A stretch of 64,000 nt of DNA, taken from a phage. Of the stretch, positions 2,813 to 57,759 are shown piece after piece. Under the pieces are notes generated by a model. It made no database searches, was not told the DNA's origin, and saw only the letters and a list, made by a program, of their open reading frames with translations. Both the position numbers and the translations under genes were made by a program. Position 1 is the first letter of the stretch. Every line of letters starts with the position of its first letter. The stretch lies in the sequence record PZ445523.1. One strand, written 5' to 3'.

Positions 2813-3749
2813 ATTTAAATTGTTCAGTAACGTCTTCAACTACTTCGTATTGACAGGTACGCATTTTAGCATCGTTGTAATCAATCGGAATTGATACTAC
2901 ATCACGAGGATGAACTTTAACTTTTACAACTCGGCTGGTTGAACTGCCAAAGTGACGAATATAAGATTTAGAACACACATGCAGACCACGAGAACAAGTT
3001 TGTGTATCATCGTCATTCACACGAGTACGTGGCATTTTAACTACTTTACCCGGACTGTTATCAAAGGTGTTTGAGTGACAGTCAAAGTAATTGCTGCGAA
3101 CTACTTTCCAAGCATAGAAGTAACCATCTTCTGTAATTTCAATATCGTTTGCTACCAAGAAATCAAAGAGTCGAGATACCGCTTTTTGGCTTGGGTTTTC
3201 CAGCAGATTTTCCAAGAACGGAAAATAAAATTCAAAGTTTTCGCCTTTTTCCATCGAGTCAAGAATACGATCAACCAAACCAGACCGCAATTCGATATTT
3301 TGATAGAACAAGCTTCCACCTTCAATTCGAACATCGCCGGAAATATATTTTTCAACAGCGCGACGAACATTAATTTTTTGTGCCGCTTCTTCCAGCTTAT
3401 CCGCTACAAGCAGATTAAGAATTTCCTGGAAGTTTGAATGAGTATTAGGAGTTGCGTTATAAGTTACGCCATCAACAGTAATTGAAATGAATTTTTTAGA
3501 TGCATTCCAAATAATGTCAGATTTAGCAACTGGAGCAATAACTGCATCGCTATTAACTTTAACTGTAATATCACCGCTAATAGTAACTTTAGGGTGTTTA
3601 GCATATTCAGCATTTTTCAAAACACGACGAATTGTGTCAACCGATACACCTTGCCAATCAGCCAATTCCTGTTGGGTGTAATTACCACTTGAATACAGTT
3701 TAACAATTTCAGCTTGTTCGTTTTTGGTCAGGCATTTAATATTGTACAT
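2811..3749 (-). CDS. rIIB: rIIB rapid-lysis protein, 312 aa
   Basis: 312-aa ORF recognised as T4 rIIB; adjacent to rIIA. Confidence 0.9.
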   Translation of the reverse strand: MYNIKCLTKNEQAEIVKLYSSGNYTQQELADWQGVSVDTIRRVLKNAEYAKHPKVTISGDITVKVNSDAVIAPVAKSDIIWNASKKFISITVDGVTYNATPNTHSNFQEILNLLVADKLEEAAQKINVRRAVEKYISGDVRIEGGSLFYQNIELRSGLVDRILDSMEKGENFEFYFPFLENLLENPSQKAVSRLFDFLVANDIEITEDGYFYAWKVVRSNYFDCHSNTFDNSPGKVVKMPRTRVNDDDTQTCSRGLHVCSKSYIRHFGSSTSRVVKVKVHPRDVVSIPIDYNDAKMRTCQYEVVEDVTEQFK

Positions 3750-51635: not shown

Positions 51636-52550
51636 TTAAGATTTAAGTAAATCAACAATTTTAATTAACTTTTCACGCTCAGATTTAGCTTTACTACTCA
51701 GTCCAGATAGTCTGAAAATTTCATCGTCATATTGTTGAATAGAAATATTCAGCTCTTCAATTTGCTTATTAAAATAATCAATTTGCTCAGAATGTTTTTC
51801 GTTACTACGAACTGGTGCAGGTTTTGTAGGCAATTTAGTTGAACTGGATTCATCCGGGCGATAAATTAAAATACAATTTGAACCAATCGGGCATTTAGCA
51901 CCAGACACATATTCTAATGTTCCAGCTTCTTTTAAAACTTCAAAAGCTAAACAGAGATGATGCCCCATATTAACATAATCTGTAGAGCGAGCTCTGATGT
52001 AATAATCATCTCCACGAGTACTAAATTTAAAGCATTTAAGGTCTTCTGTATTATTAGTTTTAAAAATCATTTGTTTATCTAGACCTTTAGCTAATCGAGC
52101 GCCTAATGCTAATAATCGTCGTTGATTTTCCCACAAATCCGCAATCATTTGGTCGAATGATAATTTCGGCATTAGTCGGCCATAAAGGTCATATCCTTTA
52201 TTATAATTACGAAGGATTTCACTCGCGTTAATACGAGACAATGCTCCAATTTTATTAAGGGCTTTCATAATGCGATTAGATAAACTCATTCCAGACCCAT
52301 TTGTTCGCTGTAAATGTTTTTCTAATCCAAATCCAATATCAACTTTAAATTTATCTAAAATTTCAGCATGAACATCTCTGTCAATAACATTCAAATCCAA
52401 AGTTGGGTTAAATCTATGAAAAAATTTATCTGGCTCTCCACGACGAAATACAGTCCATTCATTCATCATTTTTTTATTAACTAAGGATTTAATTACTGCA
52501 TTGACATTATTAATTACTACTGACATATTTTCCTCACTCAATTTTACCAA
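51636..52550 (-). CDS. tandem paralog family member 4 (304 aa)
   Basis: ORF track. Confidence 0.6.
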   Translation of the reverse strand: MVKLSEENMSVVINNVNAVIKSLVNKKMMNEWTVFRRGEPDKFFHRFNPTLDLNVIDRDVHAEILDKFKVDIGFGLEKHLQRTNGSGMSLSNRIMKALNKIGALSRINASEILRNYNKGYDLYGRLMPKLSFDQMIADLWENQRRLLALGARLAKGLDKQMIFKTNNTEDLKCFKFSTRGDDYYIRARSTDYVNMGHHLCLAFEVLKEAGTLEYVSGAKCPIGSNCILIYRPDESSSTKLPTKPAPVRSNEKHSEQIDYFNKQIEELNISIQQYDDEIFRLSGLSSKAKSEREKLIKIVDLLKS

Positions 52551-52935
52551 TTACGCGGAATAAGATTGAACAGACTATATAAGTACCACATATAGATTGA
52601 ACTAATGCCATTCCAAAGAACCAAACAATATTATCAAACCATGTCTGTTTTACGTCGAAAGGACGTAAACTTACAGTAATATTATCACCTTTTTCTATTG
52701 ATGAATACATCTCTGGGGAAATATATTCACTAAATCTATAACCGTCTTTGAGTTCATATACGGCAATAAACGATAAACTAGACCCCTTTCCTTGAGTTCC
52801 TGTAAGGGTATTAACTACAGGAACATCATAATCTTTATAATGCATATAATCATTAATTGCGTAATAACCATATGCAATTACTATACATAAACAACATATC
52901 AATAAATTCAATCTTTTAATTATCAACTGTTTCAT
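52534..52935 (-). CDS. membrane protein (133 aa, N- and C-terminal hydrophobic helices)
   Basis: ORF track. Confidence 0.5.
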   Translation of the reverse strand: MKQLIIKRLNLLICCLCIVIAYGYYAINDYMHYKDYDVPVVNTLTGTQGKGSSLSFIAVYELKDGYRFSEYISPEMYSSIEKGDNITVSLRPFDVKQTWFDNIVWFFGMALVQSICGTYIVCSILFRVIGKIE

Positions 52936-52990
52936 AATAATCTCAATTAAAAGGGCTTAGAACCATTATACCATCCTTGGTATAAAGCGG

Positions 52991-53518
52991 TTATGCGAGT
53001 ACCGTCTTTAACCGTTCTTCAAACTTCCGAAGAGTATTCTGGCGTTCAGCTCTTTGCTTTTTGTAAGTTTCAATACGCTCTGAAATGAGAGTGTATCGTT
53101 CATTTACTGATTCTTTCATAAAATCAGGAATTTCACGAGAAGCTTTAATCTCGTCAAATTTATCAATAACAGCTTGCTCTTCAGCAATTAAGTTATCATA
53201 CATCAAAATATCTTTCTTGATGAACTCAATATCTTCTTGAGTTACACGAGATAACTTAGATGCTTTATCCTTTTTGTACTGTTCGTTAGTATCACGAGAC
53301 CAGTGTAATGTACGATTTTTATTCGTATTCTTGTAAATTTCTACAATACCAATCTCATCAATAATAACGATCCAATTCCAACGGGATTTGTAAATTTGTC
53401 CTCCATCAACAGTGATTTCACCTCCGATTGAGATGTCATTAAAGAACTTGCTTTGTGCTTCAGATTTAAATTTACCATCGTTGTAATTTACCAGGTTGAA
53501 AATATCTTTAGCGTTCAT
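52991..53518 (-). CDS. hypothetical protein (175 aa from ATG at 53518)
   Basis: ORF track trimmed: upstream part is translated promoter/leader; GGAGGA SD. Confidence 0.5.
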   Translation of the reverse strand: MNAKDIFNLVNYNDGKFKSEAQSKFFNDISIGGEITVDGGQIYKSRWNWIVIIDEIGIVEIYKNTNKNRTLHWSRDTNEQYKKDKASKLSRVTQEDIEFIKKDILMYDNLIAEEQAVIDKFDEIKASREIPDFMKESVNERYTLISERIETYKKQRAERQNTLRKFEERLKTVLA

Positions 53519-53546
53519 TTTGTGTTCCTCCGTAGTTGATAGTTGT

Positions 53547-53576
53547 ATAGTACCACAGAGGAACGGTCTTGTAAAC
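53547..53576 (-). promoter_or_regulatory. T4-type early promoter
   Basis: atagta-N18-gtaaac; near-identical to cassette at 1141-1200. Confidence 0.6.
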
Positions 53577-53578
53577 AA

Positions 53579-53893
53579 CTAAAAGAAACTTCTTTCACAA
53601 TTTTTTCCACTGAACCACGCGCTCACTGCTTTCTTAGTCTCAGGAGCAGTATTATCCATAAACCATTCAAAGGCAGCCTTTTTATGATTCTGGAGGGCTT
53701 CTCGGGCTTTAATCTGCTCACGGTCTATTAACACTAACATATGAGCCTTTCTTGTCACCATGGGCTTCTTATGATTTTTTGAATACTCCCAATCATTTGT
53801 CCATCGCATCGTTGTTGCGAACTGGAATACAGCTTCTTTAATTTTAGTTTCGTAAATTTCACGAGCCTTTGAGTATAACATCACTACCTCCAT
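53579..53893 (-). CDS. hypothetical protein (104 aa)
   Basis: ORF track. Confidence 0.45.
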   Translation of the reverse strand: MEVVMLYSKAREIYETKIKEAVFQFATTMRWTNDWEYSKNHKKPMVTRKAHMLVLIDREQIKAREALQNHKKAAFEWFMDNTAPETKKAVSAWFSGKNCERSFF

Positions 53894-53963
53894 TTACCAG
53901 TTTAATTCTAGTCATCTTTTTGATGGCAGTCCATATAATCTATTTCTGAACTGCCTTTTTGTC

Positions 53964-54683
53964 TTATGATTCTTCTAAATGTCTTTTCTGAAAAGTTGAT
54001 ACCATACTACGATAAGGTTCATTTGGATACCCGTGTTTTATAGCTTCCTTTGTAAATTTTCTCCATCCGTATTTAGTTTCTTTCCAAAGCTCGAATAATT
54101 CATCTTCATACTGCCATATAGTTAAATGAGAACGCTTTGCAGCTTTAATTCCATTAATGTGCTTTTCTTTTACTGTAGGATTGCTTAGTGTCTTTTTAAT
54201 AATATTACTAACTTTTCTAACAAAAGCTGGGTCCTTATATCGTTGTGAAGTTTTTATTGAAGTGTTTAATTTAGCTTCCGGCGTGGATGTGACCTCTTTC
54301 ATCTTTTTCTTCATATGCTCTATATGATTAGGATTTTTCCATAAATTTATAGAATGCTTTTTACATTTTATCCTAGTTTCATCTGCAACCTTTCCTCCTT
54401 CACCCCCATATGACAGGTTAACGCAGTTTTTTCCATATTTCAATTTACCTGCCATGATATATAATATTTCGGCTTGTACCATTTTATCATAATTATCAAA
54501 AACTTCTAAAACCGTTTTTGATAATATATGGTCATTTGACACTTTTACACGTTCTATATAATTTCCACTACCAACATACGAATCATTGATGTTATTAGTT
54601 ATATGTCGACCATAATAGTATTTCTTAATACCTGTCTTTAAATTTAATATTTCAGTTTTATAGATAGTAAAATATTTTTTCAT
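53964..54683 (-). mobile_element. GIY-YIG-type homing endonuclease-like gene (Seg-like), 239 aa, possibly degenerate
   Basis: N-terminus FTIYKTEILNLKTGIKKYYYGRH resembles GIY...YIG...R..H; lysine-rich helical C-terminus. Confidence 0.45.
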
Positions 54684-55648
54684 TTTAATAATACCGTTTC
54701 AGCAATTTCTTCCCAATGGTTTTTGTCGGTCATAATAAAGTCAGCAAGATAAAGTGCAGTACGCAGTGAAACATTGCGTAAACGATTAACATTGACTTTC
54801 ATCCATGATAATGCTTTATAAGTTTCTTCATCAGAAAGACCGCGCTTTTGCATCATGTCAGTTGAAAGAATAACATCTTCAACCCTGACCATAATTTCTT
54901 CATTAGTGTGAACACCCAAATCTAAATAAACTGAGCGGGACACTAATGCTTGTAAATGTGGAGCAAGTTTAGTACCACGGTCTAATTCGCGGTCAATATC
55001 AACGTTTGTGATAAAAACAATCGTTCCTTTAAATTCAAACTCACGCTCAATGCCTTTTTCTTCTAAGTAAGAAGATGCAGTGCTCCAGCAGACTTTACGG
55101 GTCTCTCCAGTGTCCAGAGCAGCTTTCAGAAGATTAAGAATGTCCATATCAGAGAAAACATCCACATCATCAATCAAAAGGACAGAATTCTCTTCACGAT
55201 TATTCCAAAGCTGTTCATAAAGACCGATACCAGAGATTTTACCATTAATGCTTTTATACTCAATGTATCCAATATCATTTGCTTTATTCAAAGCTTTATC
55301 TAAAGAATACGTTTTACCAATACCTGCCGCACCAGAGATAATTAATGAACGAATGTTTCCGTTAATAATACCATTCGTCATCATTCCCATAACATTAAAT
55401 CTTTTATTAATGCGGGTTTTCATATCTTCATATGATTCTTTAACTTCTTCAACTTTTACACCATCATATGAAATGTCTGATTTGTAAACCCAAACACCGC
55501 GACGTTTACCATCAATTTCAACAAAAACTTTACCGTCTCCTTGTGCATCTACCGGAGCATTATCTGGGAACCATTCGCCTAAGAGCTCAAAAGTTCCAGA
55601 AATTTCTTTACCGAAGTAGATACCCTTATTGATAGTTACAGTTTTCAT
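54680..55648 (-). CDS. P-loop NTPase (AAA-like), 322 aa from ATG at 55648
   Basis: Walker A GAAGIGKT, Walker B LLIDDVD, sensor-like FITNVD; ORF-track N-terminus is translated promoter/terminator. Confidence 0.6.
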   Translation of the reverse strand: MKTVTINKGIYFGKEISGTFELLGEWFPDNAPVDAQGDGKVFVEIDGKRRGVWVYKSDISYDGVKVEEVKESYEDMKTRINKRFNVMGMMTNGIINGNIRSLIISGAAGIGKTYSLDKALNKANDIGYIEYKSINGKISGIGLYEQLWNNREENSVLLIDDVDVFSDMDILNLLKAALDTGETRKVCWSTASSYLEEKGIEREFEFKGTIVFITNVDIDRELDRGTKLAPHLQALVSRSVYLDLGVHTNEEIMVRVEDVILSTDMMQKRGLSDEETYKALSWMKVNVNRLRNVSLRTALYLADFIMTDKNHWEEIAETVLLK

Positions 55649-55682
55649 TTTATTCTCCAAATCCGTATCAGTTGATAGTTGT

Positions 55683-55712
55683 ATAGTACCATAAAGCTTT
55701 ATGCTTGTAAAC
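55683..55712 (-). promoter_or_regulatory. T4-type early promoter
   Basis: atagta-N18-gtaaac. Confidence 0.6.
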
Positions 55713-55742
55713 AACTTTGTGAAAAATTTTTGAAATAAAAAA

Positions 55743-55762
55743 GGGGAGCCCGAAGGCTCCCC
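55743..55762 (-). terminator. intrinsic terminator (GGGGAGCC-UUCG-GGCUCCCC plus U tract)
   Basis: ggggagcccgaaggctcccc followed on transcript by a long U run. Confidence 0.7.
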
Positions 55763-55763
55763 A

Positions 55764-56777
55764 TCATTTATAATAACTTCGGTGGTTTTCAAGATAGACC
55801 TTCTCAAGGAAGTCATCCCAGAAACTCATGTCTACTTTTTGCTGCATACCGTTCTTAGAAGCTTCAGTAGATGCTGCTTCTACTTGATCGACCACATCTT
55901 CCAAAAACTCTTGAACCGTTTTAAATGGATGTTTACCCAACTTCACGTCGAGAATAAATGGAGCATCTTGGAGTGGATAAATCAAGTCGCCAGTTTTGTA
56001 AATTTCCAATAGTTGAAGTCCACCACGACAAGCATGGCTCAGAGCTTTCCAGTCAATACCTTCATTGGCTTCAGCCTTACGAGCACGTTCACCGTATTCA
56101 GCATCTAATTTGTTCAGTGACTGCTTAAGCTCAATAAGAGAAAGCGTTGTCTGATATTTACGACCCAACACAGTGTAGAACGTTTGTGGGCCTGTTTTCT
56201 CATGATTATGGAACACCCATTCACAGAATTCGTTTTCTGGAAGACGATGCTTAATATCTTCAACTTTAGTGCGACGCTGCTTAATAGAACCATCTTCTTG
56301 GTAATCAACCCATTGCTCAGGGATTTGATTAACTACTTTCAATACATCACGTAATGCAGCCAAACGAGAACCCTTGACACCGTATTTAGAAGCTTGCTTG
56401 CGGACATATCCTAAATATGATTTCATGTTAGTCGTATAAAAACGAGAACGGTTGTCTTGAATAAACTTCCACACATCAGGCAAATCAGATTTAACCACTA
56501 GTTCAGGTGGAGTGTGAAGCATATCTAATGCTACAGTTTCACCATCTGCTGCTAATTTAAAGAAATATTTAAGACTGTATAGTTCATGGTCAATATCATC
56601 TTTAGTGTTTTTAGATGATGTGTTGTTAGTGTTTTTACTCATATGCTCTTTAACATTTCCGATAAGAATATCGCGAGCAGGAGGAACAAAGATTTCTTTA
56701 AAATCTACATCAGATTCTGGGGTAGAAGTTCCATAAAGATGACTACCAAAATAGCTTTTCATTACTGTTTTCATCAT
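55764..56777 (-). CDS. predicted nucleotidyltransferase (minimal NTase fold), 337 aa
   Basis: N-terminal GSHLYGTSTPESDVDF fits G[SG]-x9-13-D-x-[DE] nucleotidyltransferase motif. Confidence 0.5.
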   Translation of the reverse strand: MMKTVMKSYFGSHLYGTSTPESDVDFKEIFVPPARDILIGNVKEHMSKNTNNTSSKNTKDDIDHELYSLKYFFKLAADGETVALDMLHTPPELVVKSDLPDVWKFIQDNRSRFYTTNMKSYLGYVRKQASKYGVKGSRLAALRDVLKVVNQIPEQWVDYQEDGSIKQRRTKVEDIKHRLPENEFCEWVFHNHEKTGPQTFYTVLGRKYQTTLSLIELKQSLNKLDAEYGERARKAEANEGIDWKALSHACRGGLQLLEIYKTGDLIYPLQDAPFILDVKLGKHPFKTVQEFLEDVVDQVEAASTEASKNGMQQKVDMSFWDDFLEKVYLENHRSYYK

Positions 56778-57235
56778 TCAGCCTTATATTCAATAACAGG
56801 ACATACTTTAGCTTTACGAGCTTTTAAAAATTCAACGATAATCGATTTCTTGGGTTGAATAGGAGGTAAACCTTTATACGCCCTATCAATATTTTCTATG
56901 TGTAAAGCATAATCCTTTTTCCATTTATAATCTTTATATTTTTCACGCAAATGTGCAGGAATAACAAATGAACCGATAATAAGTAAAACAACCAAAAGCG
57001 CAAGTATAAATGCTGATGGAAGCAAAGTCCATAAACTACCAAAAATAAGCCAACGTTGTAGGCTTTCTGCACAAATAATTGTTAGCCCTACGAGTATAGC
57101 ACACCCAAAAATAGAAACGAAAAATGTAGGAATAGCAATAGACCAAAAATATGCGCATAGTGTCTTAGGTCGTTGCCATTCATCGTTAAACAATTTGAAT
57201 AATTTATAGTGCCAAGAGTTTTCATTAATAATCAT
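56774..57235 (-). CDS. multi-pass membrane protein (153 aa)
   Basis: ORF track; two to three hydrophobic segments. Confidence 0.5.
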   Translation of the reverse strand: MIINENSWHYKLFKLFNDEWQRPKTLCAYFWSIAIPTFFVSIFGCAILVGLTIICAESLQRWLIFGSLWTLLPSAFILALLVVLLIIGSFVIPAHLREKYKDYKWKKDYALHIENIDRAYKGLPPIQPKKSIIVEFLKARKAKVCPVIEYKAE

Positions 57236-57237
57236 AA

Positions 57238-57759
57238 TTATCCTTTCATTGAAGGCGTAACGGTTGTTAAATACTTAATCATAGCTTCAGCTTCTGATTT
57301 TGATAATGAAATTTCTCCATTGTTTTGACGAATAGAAATAAAATCCGGATGACGGTCACCACCAGCTTTTAAAACACACATATAAGTATCAACTTCGCCT
57401 TCAATATTTGAAATGATTGAAGCAGTTCCACATGAATGTGGTTTTTGATAAATCAATACAGCTTTTCTTCCGCCATTTGACTGTTCATATGCTTTTAACA
57501 CATCAAGCAAATCAGTTCTTTTATCAATAGCTAAAATGTTATTTTCATCTTCAATGTTAAATCCTTCGGATACTTCATAAAGCGTTACCCATAAATCACC
57601 AATGTCAATAACAGCATTTACGTTTCCACGGCTTTCAAGAGCATGACAAATTTTCTTGATTTCGTCATAACTCATTTTAATAATATCATCTCCTTGAATA
57701 AGAAAGATGTCATTTTTAAATTCAACACGAATTAAACCACTTCCACTTGAAATAAACAT
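57238..57759 (-). CDS. hypothetical protein (173 aa), paralog of next gene
   Basis: C-terminal ...EAEAMIKYLTTVTPSMKG resembles ...EAIALKTYLDSVIPTMISK. Confidence 0.5.
   Translation of the reverse strand: MFISSGSGLIRVEFKNDIFLIQGDDIIKMSYDEIKKICHALESRGNVNAVIDIGDLWVTLYEVSEGFNIEDENNILAIDKRTDLLDVLKAYEQSNGGRKAVLIYQKPHSCGTASIISNIEGEVDTYMCVLKAGGDRHPDFISIRQNNGEISLSKSEAEAMIKYLTTVTPSMKG

Follow-up and report, generated by a model that had tools for sequence, protein, structure and literature searches.

An intact Seg-type GIY-YIG endonuclease gene, probably a homing gene, in a cassette between nrdC.10 and nrdC.9 of a T6/RB32-type phage

The window analyzed here, a whole stretch of 64,000 nt, belongs to a Tequatrovirus of the T6/RB32 type. 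Between nrdC.10 and nrdC.9 it carries an ORF of 239 amino acids plus a stop codon (53,964-54,683) that encodes a Seg-like GIY-YIG endonuclease and equals RB32ORF093c / T6 AXN58132.1. The ORF starts with ATG and lies on the minus strand, which the initial annotation of this stretch had left unstated. Its product begins with MKKYFTIYKTEILNLKTGIKKYYYGRH, and the N-terminal TIY and YYG signatures noticed in that annotation are present, at residues 6-8 and 23-25. Upstream lies nrdC.10, which encodes a P-loop/AAA-like protein (54,680-55,648, minus strand), and downstream lies nrdC.9 (DUF7203; 53,579-53,893, minus strand). At the DNA level the ORF is 99.7% identical to its counterparts in Shigella phages ESh32 and ESh34 and 97.8% identical to those in T6, RB32 and RB33.

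The gene is already known: it is annotated as a seg-like endonuclease in RB32, T6, RB14, RB51 and dozens of later genomes. The T6 entry AXN58132.1 reads 'similar to seg putative site-specific intron-like DNA endonuclease; RB32ORF093c' and sits between nrdC.10 and nrdC.9. The RB32 and T6 genes, together with those of RB14, RB51, RB33, RB5-9 and others, are the same gene at the same site, with 97.5-100% amino-acid identity and no difference of substance from the gene in the window. A search of the literature for the locus, or for a seg name given to it, turned up no paper that deals with this gene. Several labels in public records are wrong. The RB68 record (KM607004 / NC_027979) calls the gene 'segE', a name that in T4 belongs to the hoc.1/uvsW locus; some records call it 'hypothetical protein'; and many, several of them RAST-annotated, label the whole nrdC.4-nrdC.11 block 'thioredoxin'. 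The nearby mobD.1 is called 'molybdopterin-guanine dinucleotide biosynthesis protein MobD' in many records.

The initial annotation placed an HNH-type mob gene of T4 in this interval, so that the window would have a different mobile endonuclease at the mob locus. At the resolution of single genes, neither statement survives comparison with other genomes. The T4 nrdC.9-nrdC.10 interval is a 94-bp spacer that contains no gene, and T4 mobD lies beyond nrdC.11, between nrdC.11 and mobD.1, roughly 2 kb from the seg-like site. Further, because RB10 carries mobD and the seg-like gene together, the two are not alternatives at one locus. The T4 mobD position is occupied in the window by a 153-aa ORF (56,774-57,235, minus strand) that is 99% identical to T6 RB32ORF096c, annotated in T6 as 'replaces mobD'; this ORF gave no Pfam match and no HNH signal. 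The spacer between nrdC.10 and nrdC.11 (55,649-55,763 in the window) is a second variable spot. It holds a 486-bp ORF in T2, ACG-C40 and HY01, which the T2 and ACG-C40 records give as RNA polymerase ADP-ribosylase (ModB) and the HY01 record gives as hypothetical; small ORFs occur there in ZN18, 303Ecol101PP and JLBYU31, and the window, T6 and T4 have nothing at this position.

The same spacer contains, on the minus strand, a strong terminator-like hairpin after nrdC.11 (55,743-55,762; 8 bp, 7 of them GC, followed by a T-run) and, upstream of nrdC.10, a promoter-like TTTACA-17-TACTAT with an extended TG (55,711-55,683). Together these probably mark the start of a transcription unit that includes the seg-like gene. 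A scan for sigma-70-like promoters did not exceed shuffled sequence (22 sites versus 15.4 ± 4.3), and a search near the gene for the T4 late promoter TATAAATA found none. Given the absence of a late promoter, a sigma-70-like scan at chance level, and a hairpin and promoter-like site ahead of nrdC.10, the simplest reading is that the seg-like gene is probably co-transcribed with nrdC.10 and translationally coupled to it.

Alignment of alleles places the gene in a 734-bp cassette (53,967-54,700) that, in genomes carrying it (seg+), replaces an empty allele of 37-39 bp found in T4, T2 and others. The cassette junctions are identical in 8 seg+ genomes, and 7 seg- genomes hold the 37-39-bp alternative; in the T4 alignment, the cassette stands in place of 39 bp. 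Its nrdC.10-side end is a recoded nrdC.10 terminus (54,680-54,700, minus strand; GAAACGGTATTATTAAAATGA). These 21 bp read GAA ACG GTA TTA TTA AAA TGA (ETVLLK*), where the empty allele reads GAG GTT ACT CTT CTG AAA TAA (EVTLLK*), and the new TGA stop codon of nrdC.10 overlaps the ATG of the seg-like gene as ATGA. Such an arrangement would fit a homing gene that has done away with its own target site or rewritten it. Among the empty alleles compared, the T4 reference allele of nrdC.10 (L002 10335-10373) is the odd one out. It ends in ...IATGYSSEINS* through a 1-nt insertion relative to T2, C40, Sf21, HY01, PE37 and JLBYU31; the ending is ...IATVTLLK* in PE37 and ...IAEVTLLK* in the other five.

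The seg-like gene is present in 67 phage records at nucleotide identities of at least 95%. Of the 503 records with the junction, 434 are uninterrupted there, and the cassette occurs in about 13% (67 of about 503). A search of positions 52,500-57,500 for Rfam families, group I introns included, found none, and the gene is free-standing. Comparing the 8 seg+ with the 7 seg- genomes, we looked for fixed flank differences as a signature of co-conversion and found none in 948 bp upstream or 400 bp downstream. Polymorphisms are shared between seg+ and seg- flanks, and the sole association is with a dinucleotide 17-18 nt upstream of the cassette. This dinucleotide (54,717-54,718, inside nrdC.10) is CA, within a His codon, in six of the eight seg+ genomes and in none of the seven seg- genomes, and otherwise GG, within a Gly codon; T6 and ESh32 are seg+ yet have GG. 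This difference may reflect a short tract of co-conversion, or the dinucleotide may belong to the target. Nucleotide diversity in the cassette is about that of the flanks and thus gives no hint of a recent sweep. T-even phages recombine very freely, and patchy distribution alone is therefore no proof of homing.

The protein divides into three parts. The N-terminal GIY-YIG catalytic domain (residues 1-97; 54,393-54,683, minus strand) contains the key residues Y8, Y23, G25, H27, E72 and N89 and has predicted strands at residues 4-14, 20-29 and 52-62 and helices at 41-48 and 65-86. A lysine-rich helical linker follows (residues 98-186; 54,126-54,392, minus strand), with five predicted helices of about 15-17 residues each. 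Lysine makes up 21% of this segment, which has a net charge of +16; the initial annotation had described a lysine-rich, DNA-binding-like tail, and the lysine-rich part lies in the middle of the protein. The linker aligns opposite the NUMOD3 region of homologs. A 17-residue periodicity within it is not significant at the sequence level, the score at a shift of 17 equaling the shuffle mean. The third part, a C-terminal three-helix domain (residues 187-239; 53,967-54,125, minus strand), is shared with the C-terminus of T4 SegA and is probably helix-turn-helix-like.

Single-sequence AlphaFold prediction of the protein gave a pLDDT of only 41, whereas AF2 supplied with an alignment of 91 sequences gave 95.7. 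In the latter model the order is beta-beta-alpha-beta-alpha, then the five linker helices and the three-helix C-terminal domain. The model contains the core of the GIY-YIG superfamily, a three-stranded antiparallel sheet with helices; the initial annotation had named the lack of a GIY-YIG fold among the grounds for rejecting its assignment, and the order found is that of GIY-YIG domains. Foldseek comparison of the model with the PDB found nothing. The same comparison with viral models (BFVD) returned 100 matches at E ≤ 1e-3; the gene's own orthologs rank first, and most of the matches after them bear the name of a homing, Seg-like or GIY-YIG endonuclease.

A word-indexed homolog search returned only 2 proteins, and an exhaustive HMMER search was needed; against a library of 1.84 billion proteins, it identified 1488 relatives at E ≤ 1e-3. 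The 91 aligned sequences are the seg-like protein and 90 of these relatives. Five positions are invariant in the alignment (G25, Y36, G38, E72 and N89) and all are kept in the seg-like protein, which also has every one of eight residues conserved at 90% or more (Y8, Y23, H27, D34, S39, G40, G93 and G94). Around the signature, column conservation is 98% for Y8, 99% for Y23, 100% for G25 and 96% for H27. By contrast, the G of GIY corresponds to position 6, where no residue holds a majority across the subfamily and the seg-like protein has T; at position 24, which corresponds to the I of YIG, 44% of members have I and 21% have Y. Because the TIY and YYG departures sit on columns that vary throughout the subfamily, and all invariant and near-invariant residues are kept, the motif is not degenerate, contrary to what the initial annotation had proposed.

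The family profile also aligns in register with I-TevI (1LN0), pairing Y8 with Y6, Y23 with Y17, G25 with G19, E72 with the catalytic Glu E75 and N89 with N90, the Asn with a structural or metal-site role. When PDB sequences were searched with this profile by hmmsearch, I-TevI was reached in the expected register, at a weak E value of 0.55; hhalign gave a probability of 76% and likewise paired E72 with E75. The spacer of the Y8...Y23 motif is 14 residues versus 10 in I-TevI, reflecting two small insertions that are rare among homologs. R27 of I-TevI, the canonical catalytic Arg on helix 1, lies in a segment that has no counterpart in the Seg-like profile and aligns as an insertion, and the seg-like protein has no residue aligned with it. 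The subfamily has H27 in 96% of members and K/R at position 44 (63%) or 45 (49%); the seg-like protein has R45, within the predicted helix 41-48.

Curated models give a mixed picture. The seg-like protein, searched at full length and as residues 1-102, had no Pfam GIY-YIG match (PF01541, PF19835) even at E ≤ 10, and as a single sequence it matched no NCBIfam GIY-YIG model and no PDB sequence. Pfam likewise gave it no NUMOD3 match and no HNH match; its fold is GIY-YIG. Across the 91 aligned sequences, however, 42 match SegE_GIY-YIG (PF19835) and 30 match GIY-YIG (PF01541) at E ≤ 0.01, and 31 match NUMOD3. Given the fold result, we read the lack of a Pfam match as limited model sensitivity. PHROG 314, 'homing endonuclease', does match the seg-like protein (E = 4e-30). 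The predicted fold, the homology to SegA and SegF and the patchy presence among relatives support what was first suggested for this gene: it stands free, and it encodes a Seg-type GIY-YIG endonuclease with a basic part that resembles a DNA-binding region.

The two main allele groups differ by 9-12 synonymous and 1-4 non-synonymous changes (dN/dS 0.03-0.08), a pattern that indicates purifying selection on the gene. The ORF is uninterrupted in 57 of the 60 best tblastn records. In RB3 and RB10 (RB10 copy, L010 4001-4727) the ORF is split by 7 extra nucleotides after nt 275, within the run coding for the Gly-rich GGEGG, and the AR1 copy is truncated to 165 aa. RB5, RB6, RB7 and RB9, which are near-identical to RB3 and RB10 in genome length and gene position, have intact copies. 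The copy in the window reads as intact, and with its invariant residues kept and the low dN/dS, the suggestion that it might be an inactivated remnant is not supported. Since motifs of this kind are usual in the subfamily, the gene is best regarded as probably active. Judged on sequence evidence, namely its 67 records, its 1488 relatives and the purifying selection, the ORF is genuine and not a chance one.

Diverged orthologs lie at the same site in other genera. In Klebsiella phage Merci (Jiaodavirus), a 46%-identical seg-like ortholog lies directly 3' of the nrdC.10 homolog, and on the metagenomic contig L018 (Logan SRR25011262_2357) a 45%-identical ortholog does the same; the adjacent nrdC.10 homologs are 74-77% identical. 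The three seg-like lineages (T6-like, Merci and L018) are 45-52% identical to one another, all directly 3' of nrdC.10. The L018 ortholog (2872-3594) is a real ORF of 240 aa with an ATGA overlap on nrdC.10 and an intact YVY...YYG N-terminus. L018 shares with the T6-like cassette both this overlap and the ETVLLK end of nrdC.10, whereas phage Merci does not. In the database the L018 protein is entered as P0002 (197 aa); the idea that P0002 is a remnant lacking its N-terminus was rejected, since this gene call had been mis-started at an internal Met.

Together, these results lead us to favor, with a probability of about 0.72, the reading of the ORF as an intact gene for a free-standing homing endonuclease that belongs, within the GIY-YIG superfamily, to the phage Seg branch. 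The signature of a mobile element is seen in the patchy distribution, the identical junctions on flanks with shared polymorphisms, the recoded nrdC.10 end, the decayed copies and the diverged orthologs beside nrdC.10. Counting against the reading are the blank results of the curated GIY-YIG models and of Foldseek with the PDB, the absence of a residue aligned with R27 and a cassette diversity like that of the flanks. On this reading, the gene would be expressed early by read-through from the promoter upstream of nrdC.10, and the ATGA stop/start overlap would couple its translation to that of nrdC.10. During mixed infection, the linker and C-terminal domain would bind the nrdC.10/nrdC.9 junction in a co-infecting relative that lacks the cassette, and the GIY-YIG domain would cut near the bound junction, using Mg2+. 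With the seg+ genome as template, repair of the break would carry the cassette and nearby markers over to the recipient, leading to local marker exclusion. The seg+ genome would itself be protected from its own enzyme, since there the cassette stands in place of the junction and spells the last six codons of nrdC.10 with different nucleotides. We infer the binding, cutting and repair steps by analogy with characterized Seg enzymes (PMC2330249, PMC2988022).

Three other explanations deserve weighing. The protein might have lost catalysis and be an inactive remnant, or a domesticated DNA-binding protein or regulator; I-TevI, for example, acts also as a repressor. We hold this to be quite unlikely. 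Curated GIY-YIG models leave the protein unmatched, no residue aligns with the canonical Arg of I-TevI, and a low dN/dS would fit a conserved non-catalytic role too. However, TIY and YYG are normal in the subfamily, every invariant residue is kept, E72 and N89 included, and the truly decayed copies in RB3, RB10 and AR1 look different because they are frameshifted or truncated. The lack of an aligned Arg is, moreover, common to the whole Seg-like subfamily, including members that cut DNA; SegA, SegB, SegE, SegF and SegG have been shown to do so (PMC2330249, PMC2988022). Alternatively, an active nuclease might be selected for a role other than homing, such as general exclusion of competitors or the making of breaks that drive recombination or amplification of neighboring genes. 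[quoted passage not shown] Retention of the clade beside nrdC.10 (AAA-like ATPase) and nrdC.11 (RlaP nucleotidyltransferase) in three lineages points the same way, as does purifying selection that is strong for a purely selfish gene. Nothing in our analysis, however, ties the gene to amplification or defense evasion, and plain homing already predicts both the recoded junction and the presence/absence polymorphism; we regard such a role as the main explanation as unlikely, and note that homing and non-homing roles are not mutually exclusive.

It is also conceivable that the gene is an ancestral resident, carried by the common ancestor, whose losses and exchanges are the work of ordinary homologous recombination and which no longer moves by means of its endonuclease. 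Diverged orthologs at the same site in different genera suggest an old association, and the cassette is about as diverse as its flanks. The empty allele, however, is no deletion derivative: its 37-39 bp are absent from the cassette, and it spells the same nrdC.10 end in other codons. The seg proteins are only 45-46% identical where the flanking nrdC.10 proteins are 74-77% identical, which implies different histories or rates, and the catalytic residues have been maintained. We therefore consider simple residence highly improbable, and retain the homing endonuclease reading.

As an ordinary member of the Seg family, the gene matters little beyond housekeeping. What the present analysis adds is the exact boundaries of the cassette, a candidate target consisting, in T2/T4-type phages, of the 3' end of nrdC.10 and the spacer between it and nrdC.9, and the occupation of the same site by diverged orthologs in other genera. 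In T6 x T2/T4 crosses, the locus offers a clean and inexpensive system for studying how Seg enzymes recognize their targets and bring about marker exclusion, and the labels 'segE', 'thioredoxin' and 'hypothetical' in public records can be corrected. A more speculative thought, to which we give little credence, is that this Seg clade is a long-term partner of nrdC.10, possibly with a selected role, and not a transient parasite. If that were true, the enzyme could drive exchange or amplification of the nrdC.10-nrdC.11 module under host-defense pressure, much as SegB is described to act in T6.

Among known systems, I-TevI (PDB 1LN0) is a distant relative at 18% identity. It differs in being intron-encoded, in having a Zn finger in its linker and in using R27, which is without an aligned counterpart here. 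T4 MobD is, like the seg-like gene, a free-standing homing-endonuclease-like gene of the nrdC-tk region, but its nrdC.11/mobD.1 site is about 2 kb away and it belongs to a different fold family, HNH; the mobD product of RB10 matches the Pfam HNH model weakly and below threshold, at E = 0.0029 and 18.2 bits where the cut-off is 21.4 bits. T4 SegA is closer. It has the same three-part layout over its full length (BLASTP E = 2e-8), shares the C-terminal pattern W...W...G..K..K.AI..G.PN..Y..M, is of similar size (221 aa versus 239 aa) and is likewise free-standing and early-region; its activity has been demonstrated by experiment (PMC2988022). However, SegA is only 22% identical to the seg-like protein, and its gene is inserted elsewhere, in the uvsX/beta-gt interval, so the seg-like protein presumably has a different target. 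The best matches among named Seg proteins are SegF and SegH. In PP01-like and U5-like phages the SegH gene replaces mobC between nrdG and nrdD; SegH shows 32% identity across residues 1-151 (tblastn E = 8e-7) and is longer, at 276 aa; T4 SegF, of the gene 56/soc interval, is 28% identical over residues 7-200 (BLASTP E = 7e-10). Both genes resemble the seg-like gene in being free-standing and patchily distributed among T-even phages, but lie at different loci, and SegF is described as mediating marker exclusion of T2 gene 56 (PMC2330249).
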